From Gemmatimonadales bacterium (lineage in GTDB: Bacteria; Gemmatimonadota; Gemmatimonadetes; Gemmatimonadales; GWC2-71-9): a stretch of 21,853 nucleotides of DNA. The notes under the pieces were generated by a model. The model made no database searches. It saw only the letters and a program-made list of their open reading frames with translations, and was not told where the DNA came from. Both the position numbers and the translations under genes were made by a program. Below, piece after piece: positions 1-19,304 of the stretch (positions within the stretch are counted from its first letter, which is position 1; every line of letters begins with the position of its first letter). Location: positions 1-21,853 of the forward strand of contig JBFJHJ010000042.1 of the NCBI GenBank assembly GCA_041613315.1, written 5' to 3'.

Positions 1-560
1 ACCGACAGCACATTGTTGAAATCGTGCGCCACCCCACCGGCGAGGCGCCCCACCTCCTCCAGTTTCTGCGCCTGGCGGAGCTGGGCCTCGAGCATCTCCC
101 GCTCGCGGTCGCGGAGCTGAGTCAGCGCCCGCTCGACGCGTTTGCGCTCCGTGATGTCCTGGCAGGTCGTGACGACGCCGATCGGCTCGCCCGCGACATC
201 ACGCACCACATCCGACAGTAGCTCGACGGGGAACTCGCTCCCGTCCTTCCGCACGTTGACGCTCTCACGCTTCCAACTGGTGAGCGTCCGTAGCGCTTCC
301 CTCGTGAGTGGTGTGCGCTCCCCCTCCGTCGCGAAGACCGCGACGCTTCGGCCTAGCAGCTCGCTCACCGTGTAGCCGTGCATGACCGCATCGGTCCGGT
401 TCGTGTATACGATCCGGCCGTCGGGATCGGTGATCGTCACGCCAAGCTGCATCGTCTCGAGCGCGTGGCTGAGGCGGTGCAGGGTGTCTTGGGACGGCGC
501 CCGCAGGCCCGAGTCCCACGGCCTTGGCTTCACCGGCTGACCATCCATAGGCTCACGCAT
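1..560 (-). CDS. PAS-domain histidine kinase, CckA/NtrB-like, running off the left edge
   Basis: Not in the ORF track. Hand translation from ATG 560 (overlaps the TGA of the upstream receiver gene): MREPMDGQ...GVTITDPDGRIVYTN...RKDGSEFPVEL...QDITERKR...EAQLRQAQKLEEVGRLAGGVAHDFNNVLS. This gives PAS/PAC plus the HDFNN H-box. Confidence 0.92.
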   Translation of the reverse strand, partial: MREPMDGQPVKPRPWDSGLRAPSQDTLHRLSHALETMQLGVTITDPDGRIVYTNRTDAVMHGYTVSELLGRSVAVFATEGERTPLTREALRTLTSWKRESVNVRKDGSEFPVELLSDVVRDVAGEPIGVVTTCQDITERKRVERALTQLRDREREMLEAQLRQAQKLEEVGRLAGGVAHDFNNVLS

Positions 561-1047
561 CGGCCACGCCGCTCTGCCGTGGCGTCGTGTCGGCCGCCGC
601 CAGCAGCGTCTGAAGCGGCTCGCGCAGCTCGTCCAGGGTCCACGGCTTCGCGAGAAACGGGACACCGGAGTCGAGCTGGTCCCACCCACCCTGACCGCGG
701 GACGGGTTCCCGCTCATCATCAAGAACTTCATCTCGCGGTCGCCGCCGTCACGCACCGCGCGATACAACTCGCCCCCCGACATCCGCGGCATCGCCATAT
801 CCGAGAGAATCAGGTCGATCTCGCCGCCACGGGCGCGGTAGATCTCCAACGCCTCGTGGCCGTCCGCCGCGACGAAAAGTCGAAACCCCAACCGTTCGAG
901 GACGCGGCCGGTGAGACGCCGCACGTCCGGATCGTCGTCGACGACCAGGATCGTCTGGCGCGGCCTTCCGGGATCGCCGGCGGACCCGCGATGCCAGTGG
1001 GCCTCGTTCTGCGGCGCCCGTTCCGGTGGTCTCGTCATCAGACTCAT
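553..1047 (-). CDS. Stand-alone response regulator receiver protein
   Basis: ILVVDDD, LILSDMAMP (phospho-Asp), MMSG and FLAKPW motifs; GAGGGAG ribosome-binding site before ATG 1047. Confidence 0.92.
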   Translation of the reverse strand: MSLMTRPPERAPQNEAHWHRGSAGDPGRPRQTILVVDDDPDVRRLTGRVLERLGFRLFVAADGHEALEIYRARGGEIDLILSDMAMPRMSGGELYRAVRDGGDREMKFLMMSGNPSRGQGGWDQLDSGVPFLAKPWTLDELREPLQTLLAAADTTPRQSGVADA

Positions 1048-1057
1048 CGCTCCCTCG

Positions 1058-1255
1058 TTAGTTGCCGACCGGGGGCCGGCTCGCTGAACGCTGTTTCGGG
1101 GTGCGCTTGGACTCTCGCGGCACGGCCTCCCGCCACGCGAAGTGCCGGTCGCAGGACGGGCAGATCACCCACGCCCCCAGAACGTCCTGCCGCACATGCG
1201 TCGTGACCGAGCGGCAGTGGGGACATTGCAGTCTCATCTCCTGTTGCTCCGGCAT
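1058..1255 (-). CDS. Small zinc-ribbon-like protein (CxxC-x17-CxxC)
   Basis: CPHC...WVICPSCDRHFAW. GGAGG precedes ATG 1255 (alternative start 1237). The track start at 1345 lies upstream of the sigma54 promoter. A paralogous motif occurs at 10094-10186. Confidence 0.75.
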   Translation of the reverse strand: MPEQQEMRLQCPHCRSVTTHVRQDVLGAWVICPSCDRHFAWREAVPRESKRTPKQRSASRPPVGN

Positions 1256-1306
1256 AGGTCCGGTCCTCCATTCCATCCGGTGTTCCCGCCTTGCAGCACG
1301 GATAGA

Positions 1307-1322
1307 AGCAGAGACCGTGCCC
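1307..1322 (-). promoter_or_regulatory. sigma54 (RpoN) -24/-12 promoter
   Basis: Minus strand GGGCACGGTCTCTGCT, GG-N10-GC, close to the TGGCACG-N4-TTGCW consensus. Confidence 0.8.
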
Positions 1323-1348
1323 ATGCGATGCCGAGATTCCGCCATGCT

Positions 1349-1374
1349 GTAAGTCCATTTAATACAACCATTTG
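1349..1374. promoter_or_regulatory. IHF-like dyad between promoter and enhancer
   Basis: GTAA-gtcc-ATT-taata-CAA-ccat-TTG; AT-rich, with the CAA-N4-TTR core of the IHF consensus. Confidence 0.6.
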
Positions 1375-1419
1375 AGACACGTCTTATCGTTAGGTGTTGC
1401 CCCGTTTCCCCCGTGCCCC

Positions 1420-1447
1420 GTTACCGGCTCGTAACGCGCGTCGTAAC
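1420..1447. promoter_or_regulatory. Putative upstream activator (enhancer) site, copy 1
   Basis: GTTAC-cggctc-GTAAC-gcgcgtc-GTAAC; the same spacing occurs in three other intergenic regions. Confidence 0.78.
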
Positions 1448-1463
1448 GCTCCCCGACGCGCCA

Positions 1464-1958
1464 CTATTCGGCCGGCGCGTCTTCGAGCGCGTGAAACAGT
1501 CGCGCCTCCAGCACTTCGCGGTCACGCTCGCGCCCGCGGTTCGCCACCTCGCCGCGCTCTGGCCGGTCCGAGATGTCCTGACACGTCGTCACGATGCCGA
1601 TCGGCTCGCCGTCGGCCCCCCGGATCACGTCGGAGAGCAGCTCGACCGGAAACACGGTCCCGTCCTTGCGCACGTTGAGCGTCTCCCGCTTCCAACTCCG
1701 GAGCGCCTGGAGCCCCTCCAGTGTGAGCGGACGGCGCGCGCCCTCCGGCGCGAAGACTTCCACGTCGCGTCCGGCGAGCTCCTCGACCGTGTAGCCATGC
1801 ATCTCGGCCTCCGTCCGGTTCACGTACACGATCCGGCCCTCGAGGTCGGCGATGGTGACCCCCATCGGCATCGCCTCCAGCGCGGACGACAGCCGGCGCA
1901 GGGTCTCCGCCGCTTGTTCCAGTGCGACGCGGTCTGCGTCGCGCTCTTTATCACGCAT
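1464..1958 (-). CDS. Stand-alone PAS/PAC domain protein
   Basis: GVTIADLEGRIVYVN...HGYTVEELAGR...RKDGTVFPVEL...QDISDR; no output domain; starts 18 nt after the stop of the giant barrel gene. Confidence 0.88.
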   Translation of the reverse strand: MRDKERDADRVALEQAAETLRRLSSALEAMPMGVTIADLEGRIVYVNRTEAEMHGYTVEELAGRDVEVFAPEGARRPLTLEGLQALRSWKRETLNVRKDGTVFPVELLSDVIRGADGEPIGIVTTCQDISDRPERGEVANRGRERDREVLEARLFHALEDAPAE

Positions 1959-1976: not shown

Positions 1977-4900
1977 TCAGTTGTGGCCGAGCCGCGCCCG
2001 CCAGAACTCCGCTAGCGACGCAAACGACCGCTCGGTCAGTGCGGCGCCGAACGTGACGAACCACCCGGCCCCGCCGTTCACGGCGAAGTCGGGATCCCGC
2101 AGGTCGCCGAGGCGGTAGCCGCCGGCCACTTCCAGGCCGCGCACCGGCTGCAACACGAGTTGCGGGGCGAGATCCCAGCGGTAGGTGTCGCTGGTGCGTT
2201 CGATGAGCAGGCGACCCTCGCCCCGCACCCCCAACCACGGCGTCATCTCGAGGTCGAGTCGCGCGCCCGCGTAGTCGGCGAGCGATCGGAGATCCTGCGC
2301 CGTGCCGTCGGGGTGGGCGACACTGGCCGAGCTGCGACGCACGGCGTAGCGGGCGGCGAGCTCGCCCCACGCCACCGGCGCCCAGATCGCCTCAGCGGCG
2401 AGGATGGTCCGGGTCTCGTGGCCGTCGGTGGCCAGCACGGCGCCGCCTAGAGGATTCACGGCGTCCACGTACTGCACCTTGGCGAGCACGTTGAGCGCGT
2501 CGGAGCCGACCGGCCGGAAGGCGAGGCCGTTGAGCGACGAGAGCTGCCGGTGCGAGGTGGTCCCGCCGGGCAGCGCCTGCTCCGTCGCCAGCAGCTCCTG
2601 CCGGGTGAGCAGGGCGAACGAGCGGCCCAGCGACACGTCACCGGCCGCGGTGACGAGCCGGCTCGACCGGATCTCACCTTCCCGCAGTTCCCCGCGCGCG
2701 CTCAGGCGATACGGCGCGCCGGGCGGCAGCAGTTCCACCCCCAGGCCGAGCGACCAGTAGTCCTCTTCCTGTTGGAGGAACGGCAGGGCGCGCACCGGAT
2801 CGGCGACCGGTGCAGCGGCCAAGCCCATCCGACGCTCGAAGAGCGCCTGGACGGTCCAGGCCTGTCCCAGCTTGAGGCGGTTGTTGAGACCGACGACGGC
2901 GGCATTGTGCGCCCCGTCGGCGCCGGCGATCTGGTACGAGCCCCACGCCTCGGTGCCGAACCCGATGTCGGTCCGCATCCCGAGATTGGTGAGTGCGTAG
3001 CTCGCGCCGCCCGGCAACAACACCTGGCGATGGAAGGCCTCGAGCGAGACCCGCGGGCCGACGCGGAGCCGGGCACCGCCGCCCACGTGATCCGGCCGGA
3101 CGACGCTCCCGCTGGAGCTGAGCTGGCGGCGGCCCTCGGTCCACAGGCTGAGCGCGGGCACCGGGGTCCAGCTCAGCTTGAACTCGCCGGCCTGTGAGAG
3201 ATCGGTGCCGGTGCCGGTCTCGAACCGATCGGCCGCGACGCCGGCCTCCACCTGGACCTGGCCGCCCAGGGACTGCACCACGGTCCCGCTCGTGCGGGAA
3301 CGGGTCACATCCTGCGCGTCGAAGTGCTGGCTCGTGTGCTCGACGCGAAGCTCGCTCGCCCCGACCTTGAACCGGCCGCCCAGGCGCAGCTCCTCCGTCC
3401 CGCCCTGGAGCGCCACGTTCGCCGGATTGTGGAACTCCTGATCCGCGTGCAGCCACGCGCCACTCAACATCACGGCGCCACCAGCCAGGGACAGGGTGCC
3501 CTCGACGGCGGTCGCAAATCCGCTCGAGTCGGGCGACTCGGAGTGCGCGACCTCGGCCCCAAGCGCGAGCCCGTCACGGCGCAGGATCTTGAGGTCCACG
3601 CCGGCGAGCCGCCGCTCCGCACCCGGCCGCCCGTCCTGGATGAAGGTCGTTCCGAGCTGCAGGGAATCGACCAGGTCGCCCGCCAACGCCCGCGCGTCCA
3701 CCGCCGCCCGCACGCCCCACACCGTGGACGCCGAACCGCCATCCTCGGCCTCGTAGGTCACGACGATGAACACCGGGTTGCCGGACGCGTCGGTGGCCGG
3801 CACCGGGCGCTTGAAGAGCAGGAGCCCCAGCCCGTAGTCGATCTGGTAGTCCACGAACCGGCCGAGCACCTGACGCGCGACCGTCCGCTGCGGGTTCTCG
3901 AACGCGCGCGTCTCGATCGTGATCCGCTCGGTCCCCGGCCTGATATCCGGCCGGAGATTGTAGGGGCCGGACACGCCGGCGCCCCGCACCTGGAGCTGCT
4001 CGACGCGCTGGCTGGTGGAGCTCCCGAAGCCCTGCCACACCACCGGGCCGGTCGTGACGCGGCCGGCGGCCCCCGCCAGCGTCCGATCGTAGCCGGAAAG
4101 GGTGAGTCCCTCGGCGAAGGCGCCGGTCGAGACGTCACCCAACGCCACCCAGTCGAAGCCGCGCTCCAGGCGGGCCGCGAAGGCGTACGGCGAGGCGCTC
4201 ATGGTGCGCCGCGCGCTCGCGTCGCCCAGAATCGGGTAGCGCGACTCCTCCAACGGATCGTACGAGCGACCGAACGCGTCGCGACCGGCGTCGAGCCGCC
4301 GCGAGTCGAAGCTCAGCACGACCGACGTGCGCCGATCCAGCCGCCCTCGCGCCGTCACCGCGCCGAACGCGTCCGGACTCGCGCCCACGCCCACCCGCCC
4401 GACCGCCGTCACCATGAGCGGCCGGATCGCCGGCAAGACCTCGAGCGCGACCTGCTGCACCGCGTCCCCGGACGCCACCCGGAGCGTCCCCGTCCGCACC
4501 TCCCGACCCGGCCGGAGCGCCACGTCCACCCAGCCGGACTCGTCCGAGCGGACCTGCAGCCCGACCGACGACGGATCGGCGTCTGCACCGGCCGGCTCCG
4601 CGCCCTCGGCCGACACGGTCACGAACGCCCCACCCGTCACCGGCACACCCCACCGGTCCACGACCCGGACCGCAACCGTCTCGACGCTCTGCCCGTCCGC
4701 GACGAGTTGAACCGGGGCACCGTTCACCACGAGCCGGGCCGGCCGGCCCGACACGTGGACGGCCACGCTGTCCCACCGCTCCTGGTTCCACGAGTTGGTC
4801 ATCCGGACGCGCAGCACGTGCGGCCCGCGATCGAGGGACACCGCGATGAAGTCGTGCACGCCGTCGGGCCGGAGCTTGGCCCGCGCGATGATCGAGTCAC

Positions 4901-7900
4901 CGTCGAACAGCTCGACCGGCGCGCCCGGCTCGCCGCGCACGCCCACGAAGACCCGATCGCTGGGAAGCACCGCGCCATCGGCGGGGGTGAACACGGTGAC
5001 CGCTGGGCCGTTCAGGAACGCCCGCGTGCCCTCGGCCTCCCGTTCTTCGGCGCTCCTCAAGGCGGCGACGACGACCGGTGCGGACTCACGGCGTGCCACC
5101 GGCGCGATCACTGCCGCCCCCGCCGGGGCGAGCGAGCCCTCCACGGGCCGGAGCGGGTTGTGCACCTCGGCCAGCAGCCGGGTGGGTGACCCGTCGCCGA
5201 GCGCCACCAGGACGGCCGCCGAATCCGACCGGGCCGCGCGCGCGCGGAACGTCCGGGTCGCCCCGGCCGGAATGCTCGCCAGCGCCCAACGCCCGTCGCC
5301 CAGCGCGGTGACGTTGGAGCCGTCGTCGCTCGTCAGTCCCACGGCCTGCGGATCGAAGGTCAGGACGAGACCCGCCAGCGCGGCGCCCGATGGGTTGGTG
5401 ACCGCGACCTCGTACTCCACCGCGCGCGTCGCGCCGTCACGCTCAACGAGACGAACCTCGACCCGACGGTTGCGCTGGGCCGATTCCGTGTCCGACACAC
5501 CGGCCATCGGCTCGGACGAGCCGACCCCTCTGACCGCGACGACCGGGCCGGTGAGACCGCTTCCCTGAAGCTCGTACGCCACCCATTCCGCCCGGGCGTC
5601 CGAGAGGACCCAATTGTTCCAGTACGGCGCGCCCCGCACGTCGGCGCTGTCGGCGTGCCCGACGATCTCCACCACGCAGTCGGGATGCTCGGCGCGCGCC
5701 GTGCTGAGGTGCCGCACGAGCCGCGCCGGGTCGAGCGCGTAGGTGGGCCGCGCGCTGTTGGTCGCGAAGTGTGCGACCGCCGCGCGGTCGGCCCGGGCAC
5801 CCGGCACGAGATCGGCGAGCCCGGAGCAGACGGGGCGCGCGGTAAAGCGCACCGGCACCGGAAGCCGCTCGGCCTGCGGCGCGCCTTTGCGCGGCACGAC
5901 CGCGAAGTTCATCCGGGGCGTCGTCCAACCGCTGCCGTCCCGGACGACGATGTCCGTGCCGGCGCCGACCGCGTACGCCGCCGGGAGCGTCGCGGGATCC
6001 AGCCGGTAGGCGTGGCGCCCGGGCCGCATGTTGTGGAACGAGAACTTCCCGTCCGGATCGGTCGTGACGATCTCGCCGTCGTCGCTCCACACGTCGACCC
6101 CTTCGATCCCCGGCTCACCCCCGTCCTGGACGCCGTTCCGGTTCACGTCGGCAAAGACCTTGCCGATTGCCGCCCGGGTCTCCATCGGCCAACCGCGCCG
6201 GACCCGGACCCACGCCGTCACCGACGCCGACCGCACGAAATCCGCCTCGGCGGTCGCGTAGGCCGTGTTCTCCAGCACCTCGCGGTCGGCCGACACAACG
6301 GCAACCGCGTAGCGGACCGTGTGGCTGGCCCCGGGGGCTAGCGGCCCCGCGATGTAGATCGTGAGGTTGGGTCCGTCCGCCGTGACCGAGTCCGCGCCGC
6401 GGACGCTGCCCCGAGCGTAGCGACCCCCGTCGGGCAGCCGGTCGTAGATCCGGATGTCGGCGAGCGGCAAGGTGCCGGTGTTTCGGACCGTCAGCGTGTA
6501 GGGCGCGGTCTCGCCCAGCCCTACCTCCAACACGTCGGCGGCCTTCTCGAGGTCGAGCTGGTTGGCGGCGATCCCGAACAGCGTCACCGGCGGGGCGGCG
6601 GCCGTGGTCGTCGGACCGTTATCGGCGTCCATGACGACGCCGTTCACGGCCACCACCGAATCGCGGACGCTCGCCGCGACGCTCAGCTGGAGGACGATCT
6701 CGGCCGTGGCGCCCGCCGCCACGTCGCCGACCGCCCAGGTGAGGACCGATCCGGCGACGGCCGCCGCGGGCGTCGCGCTCACGTAGTCGAGCCCCGTCGG
6801 CAGCGTGTCGGTCAAGACGACGTTGCGCGCGGCGACCGTTGGCGAGGTATTGCCGTAGCGGATCCGATAGGCCACCACGTCGCCCACGCGCGCCGTCGCC
6901 GCGCTCTCGAGCAGCTTCTCCACGAAGAGCTCGGGGAGCACGAGCGTCGTCGTCACCGCGTTCGACACGACGGAATCGGTGCCGGCGACCGTCTCGTAGC
7001 TCGCCCGGGCCACGTTGGACGGCGAGCCGCGTCCGTCGAGCCTCGCCTGGAAGCTCACCGTGCCGCGAGCGCCCGGCGCCGCGGCGGCGATCGTCACACT
7101 CACGCGGTTGGCGCCGGCGTCGTAGGCGCCGGCATCGTCCCCGGCGACGTCGGTGAGCGGCGCGCCGTCCAACAGCAGGCTCCCCGCCACGTAGGCGGTG
7201 CCGAACGGCACGGCGTCCGTGATCACCAGGTTGGTCGCCGGAGTCGACCCGCTGGCGTCGTACGTCACGGCGTAGGTGACGACGTCGCCCGTGGTGGCCG
7301 ACGCCAGGTCCACGACCTTGGAGAGGCCCACCACGATGCCGACGTCCCGCACCGACACGATGTCCTGGAGCTGGTCGGCGACCGCCGCGTCGAACTGGCT
7401 GACCCCGCGAACGTCGATCGTGTCGGCGGTGCCGCGCACGGTGGCGACGCCCGGGACATCGACGACCACGAGCAGGTAGGCCGAGTCGCCCGCGGCGAGC
7501 GCGACCGGTGCGGTGACCAGGGGGTCGCCGGCGTCCAGCGCTCCGTCACGATTGGCGTCGATGTGGAGGCGGACGGCCCATCCGGCGCGCGAGACGGCCG
7601 TCAGGGCGACCACGTCGCTGCCGTTGCCGAGGTTCGCCAGCGTGTGCGGGAAGACGACCGTGTTGCCGGGGTCGGCGATGCTCGTGCGCGCGGGCTCCAG
7701 ATCCAGGCCGGCCACCTGCCCAACGGTGAGCAGGGAGGTGTCCGACGTCACGGAGAGGGTGAGGCCGTTCGCCGCCTGGTAGGTGGCCGCGGCCCAGTTG
7801 CGGATGGTGGTACCCGCGGGCGTCTGCGCCCGCAGCTCGGTCCCGCCCAGCGCCAGAAACGCCACAAGCCCGGCCACCATCACGTGACGGTGCCGGTGCC

Positions 7901-7943
7901 AGCGTTCCTTCGCTGTAAGACCGACTGCGAGCCAGGTGTTCAA
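1977..7943 (-). CDS. Giant secreted outer-membrane protein: DUF11 repeats, SdrD-B-like domain, OmpA-like domain and predicted large C-terminal beta-barrel
   Basis: TTG start after AGAGG; signal peptide ending ELRA|Q. Three GD/E-x-x-x-Y...TD/YDxxP DUF11 repeats; GKVFADVNRNGVQDGGEPG; OmpA motifs FATNSA, IVGHADS, LSDARA, RNRRVEV; about 800 aa of alternating amphipathic strands at the C-terminus. Confidence 0.9.
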   Translation of the reverse strand: MNTWLAVGLTAKERWHRHRHVMVAGLVAFLALGGTELRAQTPAGTTIRNWAAATYQAANGLTLSVTSDTSLLTVGQVAGLDLEPARTSIADPGNTVVFPHTLANLGNGSDVVALTAVSRAGWAVRLHIDANRDGALDAGDPLVTAPVALAAGDSAYLLVVVDVPGVATVRGTADTIDVRGVSQFDAAVADQLQDIVSVRDVGIVVGLSKVVDLASATTGDVVTYAVTYDASGSTPATNLVITDAVPFGTAYVAGSLLLDGAPLTDVAGDDAGAYDAGANRVSVTIAAAAPGARGTVSFQARLDGRGSPSNVARASYETVAGTDSVVSNAVTTTLVLPELFVEKLLESAATARVGDVVAYRIRYGNTSPTVAARNVVLTDTLPTGLDYVSATPAAAVAGSVLTWAVGDVAAGATAEIVLQLSVAASVRDSVVAVNGVVMDADNGPTTTAAAPPVTLFGIAANQLDLEKAADVLEVGLGETAPYTLTVRNTGTLPLADIRIYDRLPDGGRYARGSVRGADSVTADGPNLTIYIAGPLAPGASHTVRYAVAVVSADREVLENTAYATAEADFVRSASVTAWVRVRRGWPMETRAAIGKVFADVNRNGVQDGGEPGIEGVDVWSDDGEIVTTDPDGKFSFHNMRPGRHAYRLDPATLPAAYAVGAGTDIVVRDGSGWTTPRMNFAVVPRKGAPQAERLPVPVRFTARPVCSGLADLVPGARADRAAVAHFATNSARPTYALDPARLVRHLSTARAEHPDCVVEIVGHADSADVRGAPYWNNWVLSDARAEWVAYELQGSGLTGPVVAVRGVGSSEPMAGVSDTESAQRNRRVEVRLVERDGATRAVEYEVAVTNPSGAALAGLVLTFDPQAVGLTSDDGSNVTALGDGRWALASIPAGATRTFRARAARSDSAAVLVALGDGSPTRLLAEVHNPLRPVEGSLAPAGAAVIAPVARRESAPVVVAALRSAEEREAEGTRAFLNGPAVTVFTPADGAVLPSDRVFVGVRGEPGAPVELFDGDSIIARAKLRPDGVHDFIAVSLDRGPHVLRVRMTNSWNQERWDSVAVHVSGRPARLVVNGAPVQLVADGQSVETVAVRVVDRWGVPVTGGAFVTVSAEGAEPAGADADPSSVGLQVRSDESGWVDVALRPGREVRTGTLRVASGDAVQQVALEVLPAIRPLMVTAVGRVGVGASPDAFGAVTARGRLDRRTSVVLSFDSRRLDAGRDAFGRSYDPLEESRYPILGDASARRTMSASPYAFAARLERGFDWVALGDVSTGAFAEGLTLSGYDRTLAGAAGRVTTGPVVWQGFGSSTSQRVEQLQVRGAGVSGPYNLRPDIRPGTERITIETRAFENPQRTVARQVLGRFVDYQIDYGLGLLLFKRPVPATDASGNPVFIVVTYEAEDGGSASTVWGVRAAVDARALAGDLVDSLQLGTTFIQDGRPGAERRLAGVDLKILRRDGLALGAEVAHSESPDSSGFATAVEGTLSLAGGAVMLSGAWLHADQEFHNPANVALQGGTEELRLGGRFKVGASELRVEHTSQHFDAQDVTRSRTSGTVVQSLGGQVQVEAGVAADRFETGTGTDLSQAGEFKLSWTPVPALSLWTEGRRQLSSSGSVVRPDHVGGGARLRVGPRVSLEAFHRQVLLPGGASYALTNLGMRTDIGFGTEAWGSYQIAGADGAHNAAVVGLNNRLKLGQAWTVQALFERRMGLAAAPVADPVRALPFLQQEEDYWSLGLGVELLPPGAPYRLSARGELREGEIRSSRLVTAAGDVSLGRSFALLTRQELLATEQALPGGTTSHRQLSSLNGLAFRPVGSDALNVLAKVQYVDAVNPLGGAVLATDGHETRTILAAEAIWAPVAWGELAARYAVRRSSASVAHPDGTAQDLRSLADYAGARLDLEMTPWLGVRGEGRLLIERTSDTYRWDLAPQLVLQPVRGLEVAGGYRLGDLRDPDFAVNGGAGWFVTFGAALTERSFASLAEFWRARLGHN

Positions 7944-8000
7944 GTTGACCTCTTTGCTCGAGCGTGCTGCGGTACTGCTGCCTAGGCGCTGGCTACCAGT

Positions 8001-8016
8001 AGCACGGGACGTGCCG
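8001..8016 (-). promoter_or_regulatory. sigma54 -24/-12 promoter
   Basis: Minus strand CGGCACGTCCCGTGCT, GG-N10-GC, about 60 nt upstream of the 7943 start. Confidence 0.78.
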
Positions 8017-8039
8017 CGGTGGGCGCTGCGGGGCCGATC

Positions 8040-8066
8040 GTAAGCCCTTCTTTCACAATGGATTAC
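8040..8066. promoter_or_regulatory. IHF-like dyad
   Basis: GTAA-gccc-TTC-tttca-CAA-tgga-TTAC. Confidence 0.62.
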
Positions 8067-8106
8067 AGACCTTCAGAGCAGTGGGGAAACCACGGAAGGG
8101 GCTCCG

Positions 8107-8134
8107 GTTACCGTCCGGGAACACGTCGAGTAAC
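8107..8134. promoter_or_regulatory. Putative enhancer site, copy 2
   Basis: GTTAC-cgtccg-GGAAC-acgtcga-GTAAC. Confidence 0.78.
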
Positions 8135-8187
8135 CGCGCTGGGGGAGGCGGGATCGTGAGTCGGGGTGGCGCGTGCCCAAACGACGA

Positions 8188-8217
8188 GCCCCCATCGGCC
8201 CACGGGCCGATGGGGGC
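8188..8217 (-). terminator. Strong hairpin after the shaft-like gene (terminator or mRNA stabiliser)
   Basis: Perfect inverted repeat GCCCCCATCGGCCC-ac-GGGCCGATGGGGGC, 30 nt after the stop. It is followed on the minus strand by TCGTCGTTT, a weak U-tract. Confidence 0.65.
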
Positions 8218-8247
8218 GGTGTCGCTCCGCCCGACTTTGGGGGCGGG

Positions 8248-9483
8248 TTAGTTCACGCTCGCCCGGATCCAGAAGAACCGGCTCGCGCCTGCTGCGAGGG
8301 ACCCCGAGAGGTCCGCGTCGACATCGTTGCCGACGTTGTTGAACGTCCATCCTGCCGCGTCACCGGTGGCCGACGCGAAGGTCAGCTGCGCCGGGAGCAG
8401 GTCGTCCACGTGCACGCTGTCCGCCGGCGCGGAGCCGCCGTTGGTGACCGTGATCCGGTACTGGATGAACTCGCCCGGAAGCACCCGGTCGGCCGCGCCG
8501 ATGACCGTCGTCTGGTCGTCGCGGTACGCCACCTTGGCGATGGTCAGGGCCGGCCGCACCACGGTGAGGTCGGCAAAGCCGTTGTCGCTGATCGCACTGT
8601 TCGTCACCGAGCGGGCCATGAGCACGAGTGTGTCAACCGTACCCGCGGCGACCTGGCCGATCGAGTAGATGACGTCGATGTTCTGCGACGCGCCGGACAG
8701 GACGCCGGTGATGCGCGTGCTGTCGCCGGCCACACCGTTGACCGAGACGATGGTGATCGCGACACCGGGGTTCGACGCAATGAGGTCGAATCCGTCGGTG
8801 CCGTTTCCGGTGTTGGTCACGGTGAACGAGAACGTGTAGTTCGTCCCGTTACTGGGCAGCTGCTGGAGGTTCTGCCCGCCGTCGGGCGTCACCGTCACGG
8901 CCACCACCTGATTGGGCGTGATCGTCGTGGCATCGTTGTCCGACACCCCGGCGTCACGGCGCGACGTGGCCGTCATCGTGTAGACCGTCGATTGACCGCC
9001 GGTCCCCGCGGCGACGTCGTAGATCACCTGGATGGTGATGGACCCACCCTGGGCGATCCCAACCGAGGACAGCGCGGTGTTGAGCGCCGCCAGGCTGCCG
9101 TAGGTCGTTCCCGCGTAGCGGTAGCCCGTCACCGTGATGATGCCGCCGACGGAGATCGCCTCCGAGACGGTGACACTGTCCGTGCCGTTCCCGATGTTGT
9201 CGATCTGGAACGCGATCGTGTCCGCCGTGCTGGGCGACGCCGGCGCCACCGCGGCGGCGGCGGCGATCACGTCAATGCCGGCCACGAAGCCGACCGTGAC
9301 GTCCACCGTGTCCGCCACGGGCGTATAGGTATTGTTGTTCGCGTCGGTGAACGTCACCGTCGCGATGTTGCGGATGACCGTCCCCTCCGGGGTCTGGCCA
9401 TGCGCCGGGCGCGCGATGAACGCCGCTGCCAGCGCAGCGAGCGTCAGGAGCAGCCCGATCTTGATCAAGCGGTTGCCGTGCAT
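8248..9483 (-). CDS. Secreted DUF11/Ig-like protein, putative fibre shaft subunit (~411 aa)
   Basis: AAGGAG ribosome-binding site before ATG 9483; signal peptide ending PAHG|Q; two NxGNGTD Ig-like domains; C-terminal DUF11 (LTIAK...PGEFIQYRITVTN...DDLLP) ending FWIRASVN. Confidence 0.9.
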   Translation of the reverse strand: MHGNRLIKIGLLLTLAALAAAFIARPAHGQTPEGTVIRNIATVTFTDANNNTYTPVADTVDVTVGFVAGIDVIAAAAAVAPASPSTADTIAFQIDNIGNGTDSVTVSEAISVGGIITVTGYRYAGTTYGSLAALNTALSSVGIAQGGSITIQVIYDVAAGTGGQSTVYTMTATSRRDAGVSDNDATTITPNQVVAVTVTPDGGQNLQQLPSNGTNYTFSFTVTNTGNGTDGFDLIASNPGVAITIVSVNGVAGDSTRITGVLSGASQNIDVIYSIGQVAAGTVDTLVLMARSVTNSAISDNGFADLTVVRPALTIAKVAYRDDQTTVIGAADRVLPGEFIQYRITVTNGGSAPADSVHVDDLLPAQLTFASATGDAAGWTFNNVGNDVDADLSGSLAAGASRFFWIRASVN

Positions 9484-9499
9484 CGAAAGTCTCCTTGGC

Positions 9500-10216
9500 T
9501 CACTCATCGTCGTTAGGGCTGCTCGCTCGTCTGTCGCGAGCCGAATCATTCTCAAGACCGGCCGGTGGGGCGAGCTCCGCTCGGAACTCGGCCGTCACCT
9601 GGGCGCCGGGTGCCACCCATCCCTTCACCGTCCACCGCACGTGGGTGTACGCCTCGGGCGGCGCGGGCCGCTCGACCCGCTCGCCGTCCACCTCCACCAC
9701 CACCGTGGGGTGCGTGACGAACGTGGCTCCGCCGTCAATCGAGTACTCGACGGTCACGTCGTCGCGGTCGGCCGTCGCCGAGGCCAGCACATAGCGCAGC
9801 CCCGACGGGACCGGATTCGTGAAGACCACGCCGCGCACCTCGGCGGCGGTCACGTTCGTGAACAGCAGGCGGTAGCGGACCGTGTCGCCCGGAAGCAGCG
9901 CAGCGGCGTCCCCCCCGCGCGCCTCGAACTCCTGGTGCCGCGCGTCGCCCGCCTGGAGATTCTCCGCCGTCACCACCAGCGCCCGGGCCGGCTCCGGCTC
10001 CTGGCCCGCCAGTGGCGCCGCGGTCGCGACCGCACAGACCGCGAGGACGGCCGCCACGCCCGCCGCGAACGGCGTGCGGGCACGGGCGCCCTCCCACGCG
10101 AAGTGCCGATCGCACGCGGGACAGATCACCCACCCACTTCGGACGTCGTTCGCGTCGTGGCTCCCGATCGCGCGGCAGTGCGCGCAGCGAATCATCACGA
10201 CACTCCGTGCTGACAT
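9500..10216 (-). CDS. Single DUF11-like protein with N-terminal zinc ribbon and signal-like segment (~238 aa)
   Basis: GAGGAGTGAGGGG before ATG 10216; CAHC-x17-CPAC; hydrophobic AAGVAAVLAVCAVATAAPLAG|Q; PGDTVRYRLLFTN...NPVPSGLRYV...EYSIDGG...YTHVRW. Confidence 0.87.
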   Translation of the reverse strand: MSARSVVMIRCAHCRAIGSHDANDVRSGWVICPACDRHFAWEGARARTPFAAGVAAVLAVCAVATAAPLAGQEPEPARALVVTAENLQAGDARHQEFEARGGDAAALLPGDTVRYRLLFTNVTAAEVRGVVFTNPVPSGLRYVLASATADRDDVTVEYSIDGGATFVTHPTVVVEVDGERVERPAPPEAYTHVRWTVKGWVAPGAQVTAEFRAELAPPAGLENDSARDRRASSPNDDE

Positions 10217-10302
10217 CCCCTCACTCCTCTGTGGCGGAGCGGCGCTCGGCCGCCCAGTGTTCACCCTGCGGGTGTACCTGCGCCCGCTCGTTCCTTGCTA
10301 TT

Positions 10303-10318
10303 TGCAGGGGCCGTGCCG
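10303..10318 (-). promoter_or_regulatory. sigma54 -24/-12 promoter
   Basis: Minus strand CGGCACGGCCCCTGCA, GG-N10-GC. Confidence 0.8.
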
Positions 10319-10343
10319 GACCGGCGACTTCAGGTCCAACAGC

Positions 10344-10370
10344 GTAACACCCTGTTCCACAAGCGTTTGC
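10344..10370. promoter_or_regulatory. IHF-like dyad
   Basis: GTAA-cacc-CTG-ttcca-CAA-gcgt-TTGC. Confidence 0.6.
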
Positions 10371-10413
10371 GATCAACTGCCGGTGCTCTCAGTCGAGCCG
10401 TTCACGCCCCAGT

Positions 10414-10441
10414 GTTACCGAACGGGAACGGGCTCGGTAAC
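10414..10441. promoter_or_regulatory. Putative enhancer site, copy 3
   Basis: GTTAC-cgaacg-GGAAC-gggctcg-GTAAC. Confidence 0.78.
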
Positions 10442-10495
10442 CGCCATGACGCCGCAAGCGTGAGCTCGGCGCACCGGCATCGAAGGCTCTCCCAT

Positions 10496-13400
10496 TCACC
10501 GCACCCGCGCGACGAACTCGAACTGGCCCGTGTCGTCGGGTGCGATGTGGCTCAGCGGATCCTGCAGCGCCCAGCGGATGTGCGTGACGCAGTCATCGTA
10601 GCCCGCGGGCGCGCTGCACCCCGCATCCACCGGCGTGTACGTCCAGGAGGCGGCCCCATCGTTGGAGTAGCTCACGGTGACCCCCACGCCGGGGGGAAGC
10701 GTGGTCGCGACGCTCCCGACTTTGAAGCCCACCTGCGCCGGAAGCGAGTCCACATGGACCACGCTCACCGCCGCTTCGCTGCCGGCGTTGGTCACGGTGA
10801 TCGTGTAGCTGAGATCGGTACCGGGCAGGGGCGTCCCGCCCGGGGTCACGGTTTTGCCGATCGTGAGGTTGGGCCGCACGACCACCAGTTCCAACCGGGC
10901 GTCGTCGGCCTTGCTTGGAGCGCCGACGGAGCGCGCGGTCAGGACCAGCGTGTCGGTGGTCCCCGCCGGCACCGAGGCCACGGCGTAGGTCACGGTGACC
11001 GTGGCGGTCAGGCCCTGCCCGAGATTCGCGAGGCGCGCGCTATCGGGGTTCGCCCCCTGGGTCACGCCGGGCCCCGTGATCGAGATGACGGTGATCGTGC
11101 CGCCCGGGAGCTTGACGGTCAGGAGATCATAGCTGTCGCTGATGCTCCCGATGTTCGCCACGGTGAAATCGACCGTGTAGTTGGTGCCGTTGCTCGGCAG
11201 GCGCGACGCCCTTTGCGTATCGGGCACGACGGCCACGTCGTAGGTCGGCCCGAAGATGGTCTTGGTCCGCGTGTCCGACGTGTTCGCCACGCCGTCGTTG
11301 TAGACCTCCAGCTCCAGCCGGCGGGCGAACGACGCGGACGTGAAGTTCATGAAGCTCAGCCCCTTCACGTTCAGCCAGTCGTCGGCCGCGAAGTTCGTGA
11401 GCACGTCGATCACCAGCGTCTTGCCGCCGTCCTCGTAGGTCACGGTACTCGACACCTTGTTCCGGGCGCGGCCGGAGAGTTGCGGGCTGACGTCCGTCGT
11501 GTCCCAGATCATGTCCAGGCCGGCGGGAATCCTGATCCGGATGTCGTTGGCCGCCGTGATCTGTGGGAACGGGTCGTCGGTCACCCGGAGCGTGACCATT
11601 TCGGTGACGGGATCGCCCACCGTGAAGCTCTGATCGGCGGCCGATGAGAGGTTGGGCGTAACGGCGATGAACACGATGAAGACGACCTTGTCGTCCTCGG
11701 CCGAGACCGCACCGTCGTTCCGCACCTCCAGCTCCAGGTTGTCATCCGGCGAGGCGGCGGTGAAGTTCCGGAAGCTCAGTCCCGAGATTGTGATGACGTC
11801 GTTCGGCGCGAAGTCGGTGAGCACGTCGATCACCAGGGTCTTGCCCCCGTCCTCATAGCTCACCGTGCTCGACACCTTGCCCGCCGCCGTGCCGAGGATC
11901 AGCGCCGAGACGTCCGTCACGTCCCAGCTCATGTTGAAGCCCGCCGGGATCCGGATCCGGATGTCGTTGACCGCGGTGATCGACCGCGTGACGGCATCGT
12001 CGGTCACGGTGATCGTGCTGATCGTGGTCGGCGCGTCGCCCACCCGGAAGCTCTGGTCGAACTCCGAGGAGATGCGCGGCACACCAGCGGCGATGACCGT
12101 GATCGTCTTGTCGTCGGTCGCCATCACCGTGTCGTCGTTGCGCACTTCGAGCTCGAGCCGGGCCGGCCCCGAGGTCGTCGTGAAGCTGGCGAAGCTCAAC
12201 CCCGACACGGTGATCTGGTCTCCCGCCACGAAGTTGCTCGTCACGTCGAGCACCAGCGTCTTGCCACCGTCCTCGTAGCTCACCGTGCTCGAGACCTTGC
12301 TCGCGGCCGCACCCCCGATCACCGCGGAGAGATCGGCGGTGTCCCACGTCATGGTGAGCCCCGCTGGGATGCGGATCCGGATGTCGTTGGCCGCCGTGAT
12401 CGAGGCGACCGTGCTCTCGGTGATCGTGATCGTGCCGATCGGCTGCGGCGGGTCCCCCACCGGGAAGTTCTGGTTCGCCGCCGAGGAGATCGTTGGCCGC
12501 ACCACCTGGAGGTCAGCCGACCCGTCGTCGAATACGGCAGGCGTCGTCACCGAGCGCGCCCGGAGCCTCAGCGTGTCCACCGTCCCGGCCGGGACGTCGC
12601 CGATCGAGTAGACAACGGCGATGTTCTGCGATGCGCCGGCCGCCAAATTGGTGATCCGCGTGCTGTCCCCGGCCACGCCGTTGACGGAGATGATCGTGAT
12701 CGCCGCCCCCGTCTTCGAGGCCAACAGATCAAAGGACTGCGAACCCGCTCCCGTGCCGTTCGTCACGGTGAACGTGAAGCTGTAGGTCGGGCCGCTCGGG
12801 AGGTGCCGCAGGTTCTGCCCGTTATCGGGCGTCACGGTCACCGAGGGGAGCACCTGCACCTCGAACGCGCCAACATCGCTCGCGGGACCCTGCGGGCGCG
12901 CAATGCCTCGCTGGTCGGTGGCGGGCGCGTCGGCCGCGAGCGCGTAGTCTATCGCGGGGCTGCCGACTCCTAGCGCGCGGGTAAAGCTGTTACCCCCGTT
13001 GTCCTGCAATGGGCCGAGGAGCGGGTCGCCGGTGAGGTCCGTCGGCGCGCAGCCCGTGCACCCCCCCTGGACCACGTTCCGCCCGTTGGAGACGAGGCTT
13101 CCGCCCGTGCCGCCGATCTGCCCACCCGTGTTGTTTGCCACGATCGTGTTCCGCAGGGTCAGGGTCCCCCCGCTTCGCATGATCCCCCCACCGCTCCCGC
13201 TGGGTGCGCTGTTGTGGCTGATCGTGCTGTTGATCAGCGTCAGCTGCACGCCGTCGTTGAGAATCCCGCCGCCCTGGCCCCCTGTCGTGACCGTGTTCCC
13301 GCTAACTGTCGAGTTTCGCAGCGTCAGCGTCTGCCTGTTGATGATGCCGCCCCCATCGCTGCCGCCGGCGTTATTCCCGCTGATCGTGCTTTGGACGACG

Positions 13401-13789
13401 GTGAGCGTCCCGTCGTTGCGGATGCCCGCGCCGTCCTGGCCGGCCCCTCCACGGATCGTGAGCCCCGTGAAAGTGACCACGACATTGTCAACGCGAAACA
13501 CGCGCGAGGCACCGTTCGCGTCGATGACGACGCGGCCACCGCCCGTGTTCTGAATCGTGAGGTTCCGGCTGATACGGAGCTCGCCTGATCCACTGCTCGT
13601 CAGGAGATACGTACCGGGGACGATGTTGATCGTGCTGATGCTGGGGTTCGCGATGGCGGCCCGAAGCTCGGCCATCGTGGTGACGGTCGTCGACTGTCCC
13701 TGCGCCGCCTCCCACGAGAATACGAGCGCCACGAGGGCCCCCAGGAGGACCCATCCCGTCCGTCGGATTTCGCTGCGCGCTGGGCTCAT
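10496..13789 (-). CDS. Secreted adhesin-like protein: beta-helix/choice-of-anchor-Q-like head, Ig-like repeats, C-terminal DUF11 (~1097 aa)
   Basis: AGGGGAG before ATG 13789; signal peptide ending AAQG|Q. GGGI-x-N...NSTISGN-type beta-helix repeats; DPLLGPLQDNGG...SPAID...DQRG...DVGAFE; three ~140-aa repeats; terminal DUF11 ending FEFVARVR. Confidence 0.9.
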   Translation of the reverse strand: MSPARSEIRRTGWVLLGALVALVFSWEAAQGQSTTVTTMAELRAAIANPSISTINIVPGTYLLTSSGSGELRISRNLTIQNTGGGRVVIDANGASRVFRVDNVVVTFTGLTIRGGAGQDGAGIRNDGTLTVVQSTISGNNAGGSDGGGIINRQTLTLRNSTVSGNTVTTGGQGGGILNDGVQLTLINSTISHNSAPSGSGGGIMRSGGTLTLRNTIVANNTGGQIGGTGGSLVSNGRNVVQGGCTGCAPTDLTGDPLLGPLQDNGGNSFTRALGVGSPAIDYALAADAPATDQRGIARPQGPASDVGAFEVQVLPSVTVTPDNGQNLRHLPSGPTYSFTFTVTNGTGAGSQSFDLLASKTGAAITIISVNGVAGDSTRITNLAAGASQNIAVVYSIGDVPAGTVDTLRLRARSVTTPAVFDDGSADLQVVRPTISSAANQNFPVGDPPQPIGTITITESTVASITAANDIRIRIPAGLTMTWDTADLSAVIGGAAASKVSSTVSYEDGGKTLVLDVTSNFVAGDQITVSGLSFASFTTTSGPARLELEVRNDDTVMATDDKTITVIAAGVPRISSEFDQSFRVGDAPTTISTITVTDDAVTRSITAVNDIRIRIPAGFNMSWDVTDVSALILGTAAGKVSSTVSYEDGGKTLVIDVLTDFAPNDVITISGLSFRNFTAASPDDNLELEVRNDGAVSAEDDKVVFIVFIAVTPNLSSAADQSFTVGDPVTEMVTLRVTDDPFPQITAANDIRIRIPAGLDMIWDTTDVSPQLSGRARNKVSSTVTYEDGGKTLVIDVLTNFAADDWLNVKGLSFMNFTSASFARRLELEVYNDGVANTSDTRTKTIFGPTYDVAVVPDTQRASRLPSNGTNYTVDFTVANIGSISDSYDLLTVKLPGGTITVISITGPGVTQGANPDSARLANLGQGLTATVTVTYAVASVPAGTTDTLVLTARSVGAPSKADDARLELVVVRPNLTIGKTVTPGGTPLPGTDLSYTITVTNAGSEAAVSVVHVDSLPAQVGFKVGSVATTLPPGVGVTVSYSNDGAASWTYTPVDAGCSAPAGYDDCVTHIRWALQDPLSHIAPDDTGQFEFVARVR
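11250..12496 (-). repeat. Three tandem intragenic repeats of ~139-141 aa
   Basis: Units start near 12496, 12079 and 11656. Each has ITAxNDIRIRIPAG, KVSSTVxYEDGGKTLVxDV and LELEVxND. Confidence 0.92.
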
Positions 13790-13885: not shown

Positions 13886-13901
13886 AGCAGCACTCGTGCC
13901 G
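13886..13901 (-). promoter_or_regulatory. sigma54 -24/-12 promoter
   Basis: Minus strand CGGCACGAGTGCTGCT, GG-N10-GC. Confidence 0.8.
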
Positions 13902-14027: not shown

Positions 14028-15404
14028 CTAGTCCAGCAGCCCGTACTTCTTCCTTCTTTCCCACAGGCTCTTGCGGGAGATCCCCAACACCTCGGCGGCC
14101 CGCTGCACGCTCCCCTCGCACGCATCGAGCGTGCGGCGGATGTACTCCTTCTCCACGTCGGCCAGCGTGAGCCCCTTGGGGATCGCGAAGGCGTCCCCGG
14201 CAGCGCGTGCCGCGTCCGGCACCCCCGCCACGGCTTCGAACGGCGGCAGGTGCTCCGGCAAGAGCGCCGCGCCGTCCGCGAAGATCATCGCTCGCTCGAT
14301 CACGTTCCGGAGCTCTCTCACGTTTCCCGGCCATGGCCATGCCTCGAGCTGCTGGAGCGCGGCCGGCGCGATCGTCGTCACGTCCTTGCGGAACTCCCGG
14401 CTGAAGAACTCGCGGAAGTGGTCGGCGAGGGCCGGGAGATCCGCGATGATCTCCCGGAGCGGCGGGAGCGTGATCGTGGCCACGCGGACCCGATAGTAGA
14501 GATCCGCCCGGAACTGCCCGCCCTTGACGGCGTCTTCCAGGTTCCGGTTGGTCGCCGTGACCAGCCGTGAGCGGACTTCGATCTCGTCGGTCCCGCCCAC
14601 CCGGCGGAACCGCCGCGACTCGAGCACGTTGAGCAGCTTCGCCTGGAGCTCCGGCGAGAGATCCCCGATCTCGTCCAGGAAGACCGTGCCGTCCTCGGCC
14701 ACCTCGAAGAGCCCCCGCTTGGACTCGCGGGCGTCGGTGAACGCGCCCTTCTGATAACCGAAGAGCTCGGCCTCCAGGAGTTGCGGCGGGAGCGCGGAAC
14801 AGTTGATCTCGACGAACCGGCCGCCCGAATGGGGACTCGAGTAATGGATGGCGCAGGCCACCAGGTTCTTGCCCGTGCCGCTTTCGCCCAACAACAGCAC
14901 CGTGGCGTGAGGCGTGTCGGCCACGCGCCGCACGAACTGACGCACCGCCTCGATCTTGGGATCGGCTCCGAGGATCGCCCCGGCGGAAAACTCCTTCTTG
15001 CGGGCCCGTTCCAGAGACGCCGCGTCTTCCTTGATCGGCCGTTCCTTGAGCGCCCGCTTGAGGACGGTCGTCAGCTCGTCGATGTTGACGGGTTTGGTGA
15101 GGTACTCGTTCGCGCCCGCCTTGAGGGCCTCGATGGCCGTGGCCATCTCAGCGTGGCCCGTGAGCACGAAGACCGGCAGATGCGGGTCGCTCTGGCGCAG
15201 CCGGCGGGTCACCTCGATGCCGTCCAGGTCGGGCATCACGAGGTCGGTGATGACCGCGTCGGGTGGCTCCTCGGCCCGGCGGGTGAAGAGCTGTTCCGCC
15301 CGCTCGAACACCTCCACCCGAAAGGTCCCCGCGCCGCGCAGGTTCACGGCCAGGAGCTTCCCGAACGAGAGGTCGTCGTCCAGGATGTAGACTTTAGGCG
15401 CCAT
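14028..15404 (-). CDS. NtrC/AtoC-family sigma54-dependent response regulator (REC-AAA+-Fis HTH)
   Basis: ILDDD/TDLVMP receiver; GESGTGK Walker A; GAFTDA loop; FLDEIG; RADLYYR; WPGNVRELRN; AAEVLGISRKSLW helix-turn-helix. Confidence 0.96.
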   Translation of the reverse strand: MAPKVYILDDDLSFGKLLAVNLRGAGTFRVEVFERAEQLFTRRAEEPPDAVITDLVMPDLDGIEVTRRLRQSDPHLPVFVLTGHAEMATAIEALKAGANEYLTKPVNIDELTTVLKRALKERPIKEDAASLERARKKEFSAGAILGADPKIEAVRQFVRRVADTPHATVLLLGESGTGKNLVACAIHYSSPHSGGRFVEINCSALPPQLLEAELFGYQKGAFTDARESKRGLFEVAEDGTVFLDEIGDLSPELQAKLLNVLESRRFRRVGGTDEIEVRSRLVTATNRNLEDAVKGGQFRADLYYRVRVATITLPPLREIIADLPALADHFREFFSREFRKDVTTIAPAALQQLEAWPWPGNVRELRNVIERAMIFADGAALLPEHLPPFEAVAGVPDAARAAGDAFAIPKGLTLADVEKEYIRRTLDACEGSVQRAAEVLGISRKSLWERRKKYGLLD

Positions 15405-18918: not shown

Positions 18919-18973
18919 GCGGCCCCCCGAGCGATCCGCGGCGACGACGGCGTGGGAACGCCCGTTCAGGTGA

Positions 18974-19046
<73 letters not shown>

Positions 19047-19247
19047 GGAAGCGGAGAAGTATACAGCGGTAAGGCCGTCAGCTGCACCTCCCGGCGCGTG
19101 CGACTTCAACTCGCGCTTCGCGCTGGCATTCTGCAACACCCACCTGCACTCGTCAATCACGGCCGTCGCGGATGGGGTGCGTCGCGGCACGCTCGCGATC
19201 CGCCGACTGCCTGCCGTGGCTGCGCCTTGCCGTGGCACCACGGGTCA

Positions 19248-19263: not shown

Positions 19264-19304
19264 AATGTGGGGGCGCTCGCAGACATGTGGAGATGGTCGG
19301 GGCT

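Follow-up and report, generated by a model that had tools for sequence, protein, structure and literature searches.

The window analyzed here is the whole of contig JBFJHJ010000042.1 (21,853 nucleotides), part of the 2.6-Mb, 83% complete metagenome-assembled genome GCA_041613315.1 of a Gemmatimonadales bacterium. On its minus strand lies, head to tail, a cluster of four genes encoding an adhesin, a small protein, a protein of 411 amino acids (the pilin) and a giant protein of 1,988 amino acids (Table 1). It is likely that the products of this cluster form a surface fibre independently of sortase and chaperone, the subunits being joined by complementation, between chains, of split domains of the DUF11 family (PF01345), also called CLIPPER. 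The acceptor would be a seven-stranded half-domain at the C-terminus of one protein, containing a Lys and the catalytic Asp, and the donor would be the missing two-strand hairpin, which carries the Asn and constitutes the mature N-terminus of the next protein. The preliminary description of this DNA, made from its letters alone, had cast the giant protein as a donor-only anchor, the 411–amino acid protein as the shaft and the adhesin as an acceptor-only tip. These roles are supported by gene order, by natural gene fission and fusion in relatives, and by a structure model of two pilin copies; the motifs and coordinates given there for the three proteins all agreed with the translations, and the small protein had been overlooked. 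Neither a sortase (PF04203) nor a PapD-like chaperone (PF00345) was found in the genome, at the completeness given above and with the positive controls matched, and the proteins, which end right after their last strand, carry no C-terminal sorting signal of the LPXTG type.

Truncated DUF11 domains and N-terminal hairpins

The CLIPPER domain of crystal structure 9IFR consists of 4 + 5 strands and contains Lys 715, Asp 748 and Asn 806 (available part of PMC12617251). The domains of the cluster belong to the same family and have the same triad, with Lys in the first strand, Asp, and Asn in the penultimate strand (same source, as far as available). The three internal DUF11 domains of the giant protein look like ordinary members: Pfam matched DUF11 there with 109.9 bits (cut-off 24.6), the motifs with Lys, Asp and Asn previously claimed for all three were confirmed, and in an alignment of the first one (21 fused sequences, window included) K10, D44 and N111 are invariant.

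The C-terminal domain of the pilin, in contrast to a complete DUF11, is truncated. The Pfam match (47.1 bits) covers profile positions 12–84 of 114 and reaches the last residues of the protein (…FWIRASVN-stop). When the C-terminal domains of 25 pilins were aligned by hhalign to the complete first DUF11 of 21 giants (probability 95%, E 2.3e-8), the alignment covered columns 17–103 of 139 and stopped at the FQARL strand, about 36 columns being lacking. An AlphaFold2 (AF2) model of the pilin (predicted local distance difference test [pLDDT] 89) has three immunoglobulin (Ig)-like domains, and DSSP assigned seven strands to residues 311–411 and two to the N-terminus. VIA-align found generic Ig and macroglobulin-like matches for this model, including AgI/II isopeptide domains at a Z score of about 10. 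The DUF11 match of the adhesin (27.2 bits) covers profile positions 2–54 of 114, and that of the small protein (E 1.4e-4, 22.6 bits) lies below the gathering cut-off of 24.6; the half-domain of the latter also stops, just past the …EFRAxL strand. A full sandwich of nine strands, with all of Lys, Asp and Asn on the same chain, is seen in none of the C-terminal domains of pilin, adhesin and small protein. The earlier claim that the 411–amino acid protein and the adhesin end exactly before the closing strands is thus upheld by Pfam coverage, hhalign and the strand count of the AF2 model.

The pilin has an ordinary signal peptide, which ends AHG before the mature N-terminus QTPEGTVIRN… (from 9396) and has no lipobox cysteine. 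A hidden Markov model (HMM) built from 23 pilin N-termini matched the N-terminus of the giant protein of the window with an E value of 6.4e-8. Among 3,331 stop-to-stop segments of the window and 44 related loci, the only ones matched by this donor HMM below 1e-3 were pilins (37) and N-termini of giants (22); adhesins and small proteins, those of the window included, were not matched. Judged from these matches, the N-terminal hairpins of pilin and giant are homologous. Of the 40 giants of related loci, 38 have the hairpin after the signal peptide. In 27 aligned pilin relatives (60–88% identity), the hairpin ranks with the most conserved parts, the Lys of the first strand does not vary, and Asp is present in at least 90%. 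Pilin relatives numbered at least 1,094 among 8,000 scored candidates, and a length of about 410 amino acids prevails among the 120 listed.

Gene order, fission and fusion in relatives

A scan of genome contigs yielded the 44 loci, of which 33 have the genes of small protein, pilin and giant in this order and 25 an adhesin-type gene directly upstream; those without the usual order are mostly short contigs or distant relatives. The donor/acceptor pattern, for which the preliminary description had named homologous clusters as a check, is in this respect conserved. One locus (L019, 102–7378) has the order reversed, with the giant gene upstream of that of the pilin. The same logic of hairpin and half-domain was found in two distant clusters of Pseudomonadales, L046 and L048. 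Both contain two pilin-like genes and a small acceptor protein with Lys and Asp as read by eye (L046:9719–19811; L048:9513–12504); the hairpin-bearing giant of L046 is an open frame of 2,325 amino acids (stop to stop), and the contig of L048 ends before that position.

In eight loci (L012, L013, L015, L022, L025, L034, L036 and L043), the giant is encoded by two genes. The product of gene one consists of a signal peptide, the hairpin, Ig and a DUF11 that ends …FQVRV-stop, at the very column at which the pilin stops. The product of gene two has a signal peptide of its own, its mature N-terminus is the closing hairpin (e.g. …SNTAAATYETIAG…), and the remaining giant follows directly. Lys and Asp are present in all eight first genes, and Asn in all eight second genes. 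Compared with the fused giants, the same domain is therefore contained in one chain in some genomes and distributed over two secreted chains elsewhere.

The converse was observed in two pilin relatives, P0107 (672 amino acids) and P0108 (683 amino acids; cluster of 10 members), in which the truncated end of the pilin is joined by a few residues, with no signal peptide in between, to the hairpin of an adaptor. Residues 21–411 of P0108 match the pilin (63% identity, E 2e-152), residues 416–683 match residues 37–304 of the giant (50% identity, E 9e-76), and the C-terminus is again …FQVRVGG. Neither fusion has retained the acceptor Lys (Ala and Gln instead, read by eye), as would be expected if this Lys mattered only for the joining of separate chains.

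A model of two pilin copies and the putative covalent lock

Two mature copies of the pilin were modeled with ESMFold2 and the pilin's own 27-row alignment, in three runs and with three controls. The interaction prediction score from aligned errors (ipSAE) was 0.71, 0.71 and 0.02; the best control reached 0.00. In the calibration, 20 of 30 proteins whose solved structure is a pair of one chain attained the mark set for this score, as did 1 of 23 with a single-chain structure. Between runs, at least 5% of contacts agreed, and the partner had a pLDDT of 88 or higher. The interface lacks symmetry: residues 30–67 of copy 2 face residues 310–367, 395–396, 410–411 and 209–214 of copy 1, the last being the invariant PSNGTNY loop of the pilin. 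The listed pairs (361:41, 359:43, 357:45 and 355:47; 313:43 and 311:45/47) place the first strand of the hairpin against the strand with the Lys and the strand with the Asp, and this register, if extrapolated, would put K317 beside N39. The model thus supports, and does not prove, head-to-tail complementation of the pilin.

The residues for an isopeptide bond are conserved to a degree that differs from joint to joint. At the pilin–pilin link, all 37 sequences have Lys, 35 of 36 have Asp and 33 of 36 have Asn, the remainder having Asp (two) or Ser (one) at the Asn position. Asp, too, is able to form an isopeptide bond. At the tip link, to which the pilin hairpin would contribute the Asn, the acceptor of the adhesin has Lys in 22 and Asp in 31 of 33 rows (one or two of which are mis-assigned fragments), and 31 of 33 stop at the same hydrophobic strand followed by R/K. 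At the anchor link, the pilin acceptor would supply Lys and Asp, and the hairpin of the giant has Asn in 15 of 38 (Ser in 10, Ala in 8, others in 5), the window being among those with Asn. At the link inside the anchor, that is, the first DUF11, fused or split, Lys, Asp and Asn are complete. The conservation of K/D/N in homologues, set as a check in the preliminary description, accordingly turned out near-invariant between pilins and incomplete for the Lys of the tip and the Asn of the anchor. From the pattern of conservation and contacts, we lean slightly towards a Lys–Asn isopeptide across the interface in this organism. Probably, the bond is real wherever all three residues are present, and some joints can do without it; it is most likely, and best supported, at the pilin–pilin links and at the link inside the anchor.

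Proposed assembly and anchoring of the fibre

All parts would be exported by Sec. The fibre would begin with the adhesin as its tip, continue with one or many copies of the pilin and end with the giant, which has a donor only. The adhesin would enter the barrel of the giant first, the barrel serving as export pore for growth with the tip ahead, and each pilin hairpin would complete the half-domain at the base of the fibre, with bonds being formed where the triad is present. The N-terminal hairpin of the giant, tethered below the barrel, would make the final joint, by which growth would end and the fibre become anchored. From there, the fibre would pass via the barrel to a stalk, which the OmpA-like domain would attach to peptidoglycan, and the huge outer-membrane barrel would hold the giant as well.

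The adhesin, as translated from the ATG at 13789 (preceded by GGGGAG), is composed of a signal peptide, a right-handed β-helix, a choice-of-anchor Q domain, three repeats of ∼130 amino acids, a PSNGTNY Ig and the truncated DUF11 (Pfam Beta_helix, NCBIfam choice_anch_Q). The repeats, at residues ∼550–960 (about 11250–12480, minus strand), are arranged in tandem, share DIRIRIPAG and KVSSTV(S/T)YEDGGKTLV, and gave no family match.

In the giant, the order is signal peptide, donor hairpin, Ig, three complete DUF11 domains, SdrD_B, an OmpA-like domain, Ig-like domains, and a β-barrel of ∼820 amino acids. A sequence search of the PDB with the whole protein returned matches for the SdrD and OmpA-like domains only. 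The AF2 model of the barrel (23-row alignment; pLDDT 76, predicted template modeling score 0.63) has about 40 long strands and a small inserted β domain; a barrel with that many strands would rank among the largest formed by a single chain, and the inserted domain (model residues 145–233) holds an invariant DYxIDY motif. Foldseek matched it to generic large outer-membrane barrels only, namely Deinococcus SlpA (top, template modeling [TM] score 0.32), LptD, BtuB, SprA and FimD, the last at ranks 32 and 43 with TM scores of 0.17–0.23 (no separate search was made with the Usher model of Pfam). The ESM Atlas returned unnamed clusters and one Porin_4 lead on 33% of the members, from which no family could be assigned.

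Of 401 sampled Gemmatimonadota genomes, 27 contain a near-full-length orthologue of the barrel, and 47 any match below 1e-30. A library of 1.84 billion proteins contains 2,879 representatives of the barrel family at E ≤ 0.001 and 1,282 at E ≤ 1e-30. Hairpins with Asn are frequent in the wider family: among the 61 representatives of at least 1,400 amino acids that start with M, drawn from the best 150 of the family, 45 have the motif h-x-N-x-A-xxx-Y/F/W within residues 11–100, compared with 1 of 61 in a control stretch. A class of barrels of ∼1,000 amino acids lacks the hairpin motif in 25 of 30 cases (e.g. P0204, P0210 and P0215). In a locus of Neomarinimicrobiota (L045), the barrel is encoded by a separate gene (18566–21661) downstream of a hairpin-bearing open frame of 2,227 amino acids (stop to stop).

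The small protein lies between adhesin and pilin in 33 loci, a position as conserved as that of the pilin. In the window, Glu and Asn occupy the positions of Lys and Asp, respectively, and the protein ends soon after VTAEFRAEL. Its relatives have Lys in 0 of the 33 rows with a residue at that position, and Asp or Asn at the Asp position in 21 and 14 rows, respectively. Most of them have an ordinary signal peptide, and the CxxC…CxxC extension is confined to the window and its two closest relatives. As an acceptor without Lys cannot lock, it may bind the hairpin reversibly, as a cap or holder, which is a guess. On a holder reading, it would be displaced once an acceptor with Lys takes over the hairpin irreversibly. 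Together with this holder, the natural split of catcher and tag, by which subunits would polymerize and become locked covalently, the ∼40-strand barrel as both pore and terminator or anchor, and the independence of chaperone, sortase and ATP could define a new and widespread class of Gram-negative pili, a reading which we put forward tentatively and regard as possible rather than probable.

Objections and alternative explanations

Several observations weigh against complementation between chains, against a covalent lock, or against both. The similarity of the hairpins to the closing strands of DUF11 is not significant: 45-residue hairpins (window pilin, window giant and gene B of L012) had no Pfam match even at an E value of 10, hhalign against the complete DUF11 gave E 0.05 in the wrong region and no meaningful alignment, and an HMM of the closing strands in cis scored the hairpins at 0–3 bits. 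Sequence-level identity of the two was dropped after these results. Of the earlier statement that the mature N-termini consist of the closing strands, what stands is that hairpins are located there, that they are homologous to each other and that the pattern is kept; their resemblance to the closing strands rests on this pattern (N-x-A-xxx-Y/F, then a second short strand), on gene fission and on the two-copy model. In the latter, K317 and N39 are outside the 25 pairs of lowest error, K317 being listed with D58, one of the three runs had no interface, and the model may merely rebuild a familiar complete domain. The OmpA-like domain lies in mid-chain of the giant, which makes for an awkward topology. 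In relatives, Asn is absent from the hairpin of the giant in 23 of 38, Lys from 11 of 33 adhesin rows, and one pilin has Ser at the Asn position; thus, the covalent bond cannot be universal.

If the hairpin of the pilin completed the C-terminal half-domain of its own chain, the protein would be a compact monomeric surface protein with a circularly permuted DUF11, two Ig domains lying between its parts, and the likeness of its N-terminus to that of the giant would reflect shared ancestry only. The AF2 monomer, in which residues 30–66 form two strands with pLDDT 84–90, allows for such docking on the own chain, as does the two-copy run without an interface. However, the other two runs gave the trans arrangement, and monomer models of known donor-strand pilins are reported to be self-closed as well (available part of PMC11821415). 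Self-closure is also at odds with the adhesin and the small protein, which have an acceptor and no hairpin, and with the giant, which has the hairpin and no incomplete domain. The fact that P0107 and P0108 retain the N-terminal hairpin, even though their acceptor is already followed by another one in the same chain, further argues against that hairpin serving its own chain, and we consider this alternative very unlikely. It appears somewhat less improbable, and still unlikely, that one adhesin, one pilin and one anchor are joined by the same complementation into a fixed three-part adhesin, with the pilin as an adaptor and no polymer being formed. The single pilin gene of the cluster would agree with it, and so would P0107 and P0108, which resemble adaptors in fixed order; yet donor and acceptor of the pilin are predicted to fit each other, and the K/D/N triad is best conserved in the pilin among all links.

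That complementation plays no part at all, with the barrel recognizing the N-terminal peptide as a signal for export or sorting and the C-terminal domains being short, stable Ig variants, seems hardly credible. Such a role is suggested by the location of the strongly conserved peptide directly after the signal peptide, and by the lack of significant similarity to the closing strands. Nevertheless, fission in eight loci places at a mature N-terminus what is the end of a complete DUF11 in the fused relatives, the acceptors stop at the column of the fission point, and the peptide is missing from the adhesin and the small protein, although both would need export as well.

Relation to known fibres

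The CLIPPER bond has been described as intramolecular, from the tandem repeats of long adhesins that consist of a single protein, and a split domain or a bond between chains is not mentioned (PMC12617251, available part); in the fibre proposed here, the last two strands with the Asn are on another polypeptide. Donor strand exchange with subsequent isopeptide formation is already known from BsaA fibres of Clostridium perfringens (TasA family), in which N35 is linked to K74 with E56 as catalyst (bioRxiv 10.1101/2024.11.04.621531, available part). As in the fibre proposed here, an N-terminal segment enters the sheet of the next subunit, the donor Asn is bound to the acceptor Lys, the catalyst is acidic, and no sortase is involved. 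In the N35A variant of BsaA, oligomers reportedly persist in non-covalent form. As far as that source is available, BsaA differs in its fold (TasA-like instead of CnaA-like), its single-strand donor, its host with one membrane, and the lack of a barrel, a tip adhesin and a donor-bearing anchor. TasA-type families were absent from the Pfam hits of the three large proteins (E ≤ 0.01) and of the small protein (E ≤ 0.001). In the thread of Sulfolobus acidocaldarius (Saci_0406), donor strand complementation has been combined with a proposed isopeptide between the N-terminal amino group of Asp24 and Asn57 of subunit n+2 (PMC9715654, available part). It shares with the fibre proposed here the donor strand and a proposed covalent bond between subunits without a known enzyme, and differs in its unrelated fold, its single-membrane archaeal host and the use of the N-terminal amino group (same source, same limit).

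Chaperone-usher pili such as type 1 and P pili, according to general knowledge and the available part of PMC11821415, likewise have an acceptor-only tip adhesin, a shaft of subunits with donor and acceptor, an outer-membrane barrel and probably tip-first growth. Their donor, however, is one strand, whereas here it would be a two-strand hairpin, no PapD-like chaperone was found, the terminator would reside within the barrel protein, and a covalent lock is possible. The barrel of the giant is, from its generic Foldseek matches, not recognizably an usher. Membership in the chaperone-usher, sortase-dependent or TasA class was rejected on the absence of PF00345 and PF04203 from the 83% complete genome and of a TasA-type Pfam hit; type V pili (FimA/Mfa1) were rejected because there was no FimA-type Pfam hit and the signal peptide of the pilin is ordinary, without a lipobox cysteine. 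SpyTag/SpyCatcher and DogTag/DogCatcher are reportedly isopeptide domains of Gram-positive adhesins that were split in the laboratory and in which tag and catcher reconstitute and bond spontaneously. Those pairs are engineered, whereas the split would here be natural and used for assembly.

A description of a split-DUF11 fibre or of an intermolecular CLIPPER was not found in the literature searched, whose scope mostly excluded subscription journals. As a donor strand fibre with isopeptide lock is already known, what would be new is the different fold and the outer-membrane apparatus. If the proposal is true, bacteria with two membranes have, in addition to chaperone-usher, type IV, type V and curli pathways, another route to a pilus, which self-assembles by split-isopeptide chemistry; nature has then reached the tag/catcher principle of protein engineering, and a family of orthogonal, co-evolved pairs of hairpin and half-domain is on offer. 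In view of the 2,879 representative clusters of the barrel family, soils and waters may commonly harbor the system, and it may explain many genes annotated merely as "DUF11 repeat protein." Natural controls for experiments would be provided by the triad, whose conservation is high from one shaft subunit to the next, decreases at tip and anchor, and has vanished in proteins with fused halves.

Genomic setting and possible regulation

Table 1. Features of the window; roles in fibre assembly are putative.
Feature	Position	Strand	Description
Adhesin (putative tip)	10496..13789	−	Translation; ends …FEFVARVR-stop
Acceptor half-domain of adhesin	10499..10873	−	LTIGK … VHVDSLP … FEFVARVR-stop; Lys and Asp present, closing strands absent
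Small acceptor-only protein	9500..10264	−	CxxC…CxxC stretch, hydrophobic segment, single DUF11-like half-domain
Pilin, 411 amino acids (putative shaft)	8248..9483	−	Signal peptide, donor hairpin, two Ig-like domains, truncated DUF11 acceptor
Donor hairpin of pilin	9259..9396	−	Mature N-terminus QTPEGTVIRNIATVTF…VDVTV; carries candidate isopeptide Asn
Acceptor half-domain of pilin	8251..8568	−	LTIAK … VHVDDLLP … FWIRASVN-stop; seven strands, Lys and Asp
Giant protein, 1,988 amino acids (putative anchor)	1977..7943	−	Mature N-terminus QTPAGTTIRN… from 7826
Donor hairpin of giant	7722..7826	−	QTPAGTTIRNWAAATY…SLLTV; donor HMM E 6.4e-8
Complete DUF11 #1 of giant	6936..7346	−	…TVSFQARL (about 7038) is the split point in eight relatives
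OmpA-like peptidoglycan-binding domain	5424..5771	−	Giant residues ∼725–840; Pfam OmpA; PDB sequence matches PomB, MotB, TssL, Pal
C-terminal β-barrel of giant	1980..4442	−	Residues 1168–1988; AF2
Response regulator, sigma-54-dependent	14028..15404	−	Pfam Response_reg, Sigma54_activat, HTH_8; immediately upstream of the cluster
GGCAC-N6-TGC sites, sigma-54 −24/−12-like	13887..13900; 10304..10317; 8002..8015	−	Just upstream of the adhesin, small-protein and giant genes, respectively

Beyond the sigma-54-dependent response regulator, further upstream of the cluster, lies a gene for a histidine kinase. The core pattern GGCAC-N6-TGC occurs five times in the window against 1.59 expected, a number reached in 2 of 100 shuffles; the enrichment holds for this tighter pattern only, the looser sigma-54 pattern (two mismatches) being at chance level in the window (16 vs 17 expected). 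From the sequence, the placement of the three sites listed in Table 1 is compatible with control of the cluster by the adjoining sigma-54 activator. The two further sites are at 1308–1321 (minus strand) and 19249–19262 (plus strand). The flanks of the cluster (3–1958, minus strand; 16119–17885, plus strand) encode PAS-domain proteins, a response regulator and a GAF-PAS histidine kinase, and a gene with a HemD domain (uroporphyrinogen-III synthase) is located at 20531–21607.

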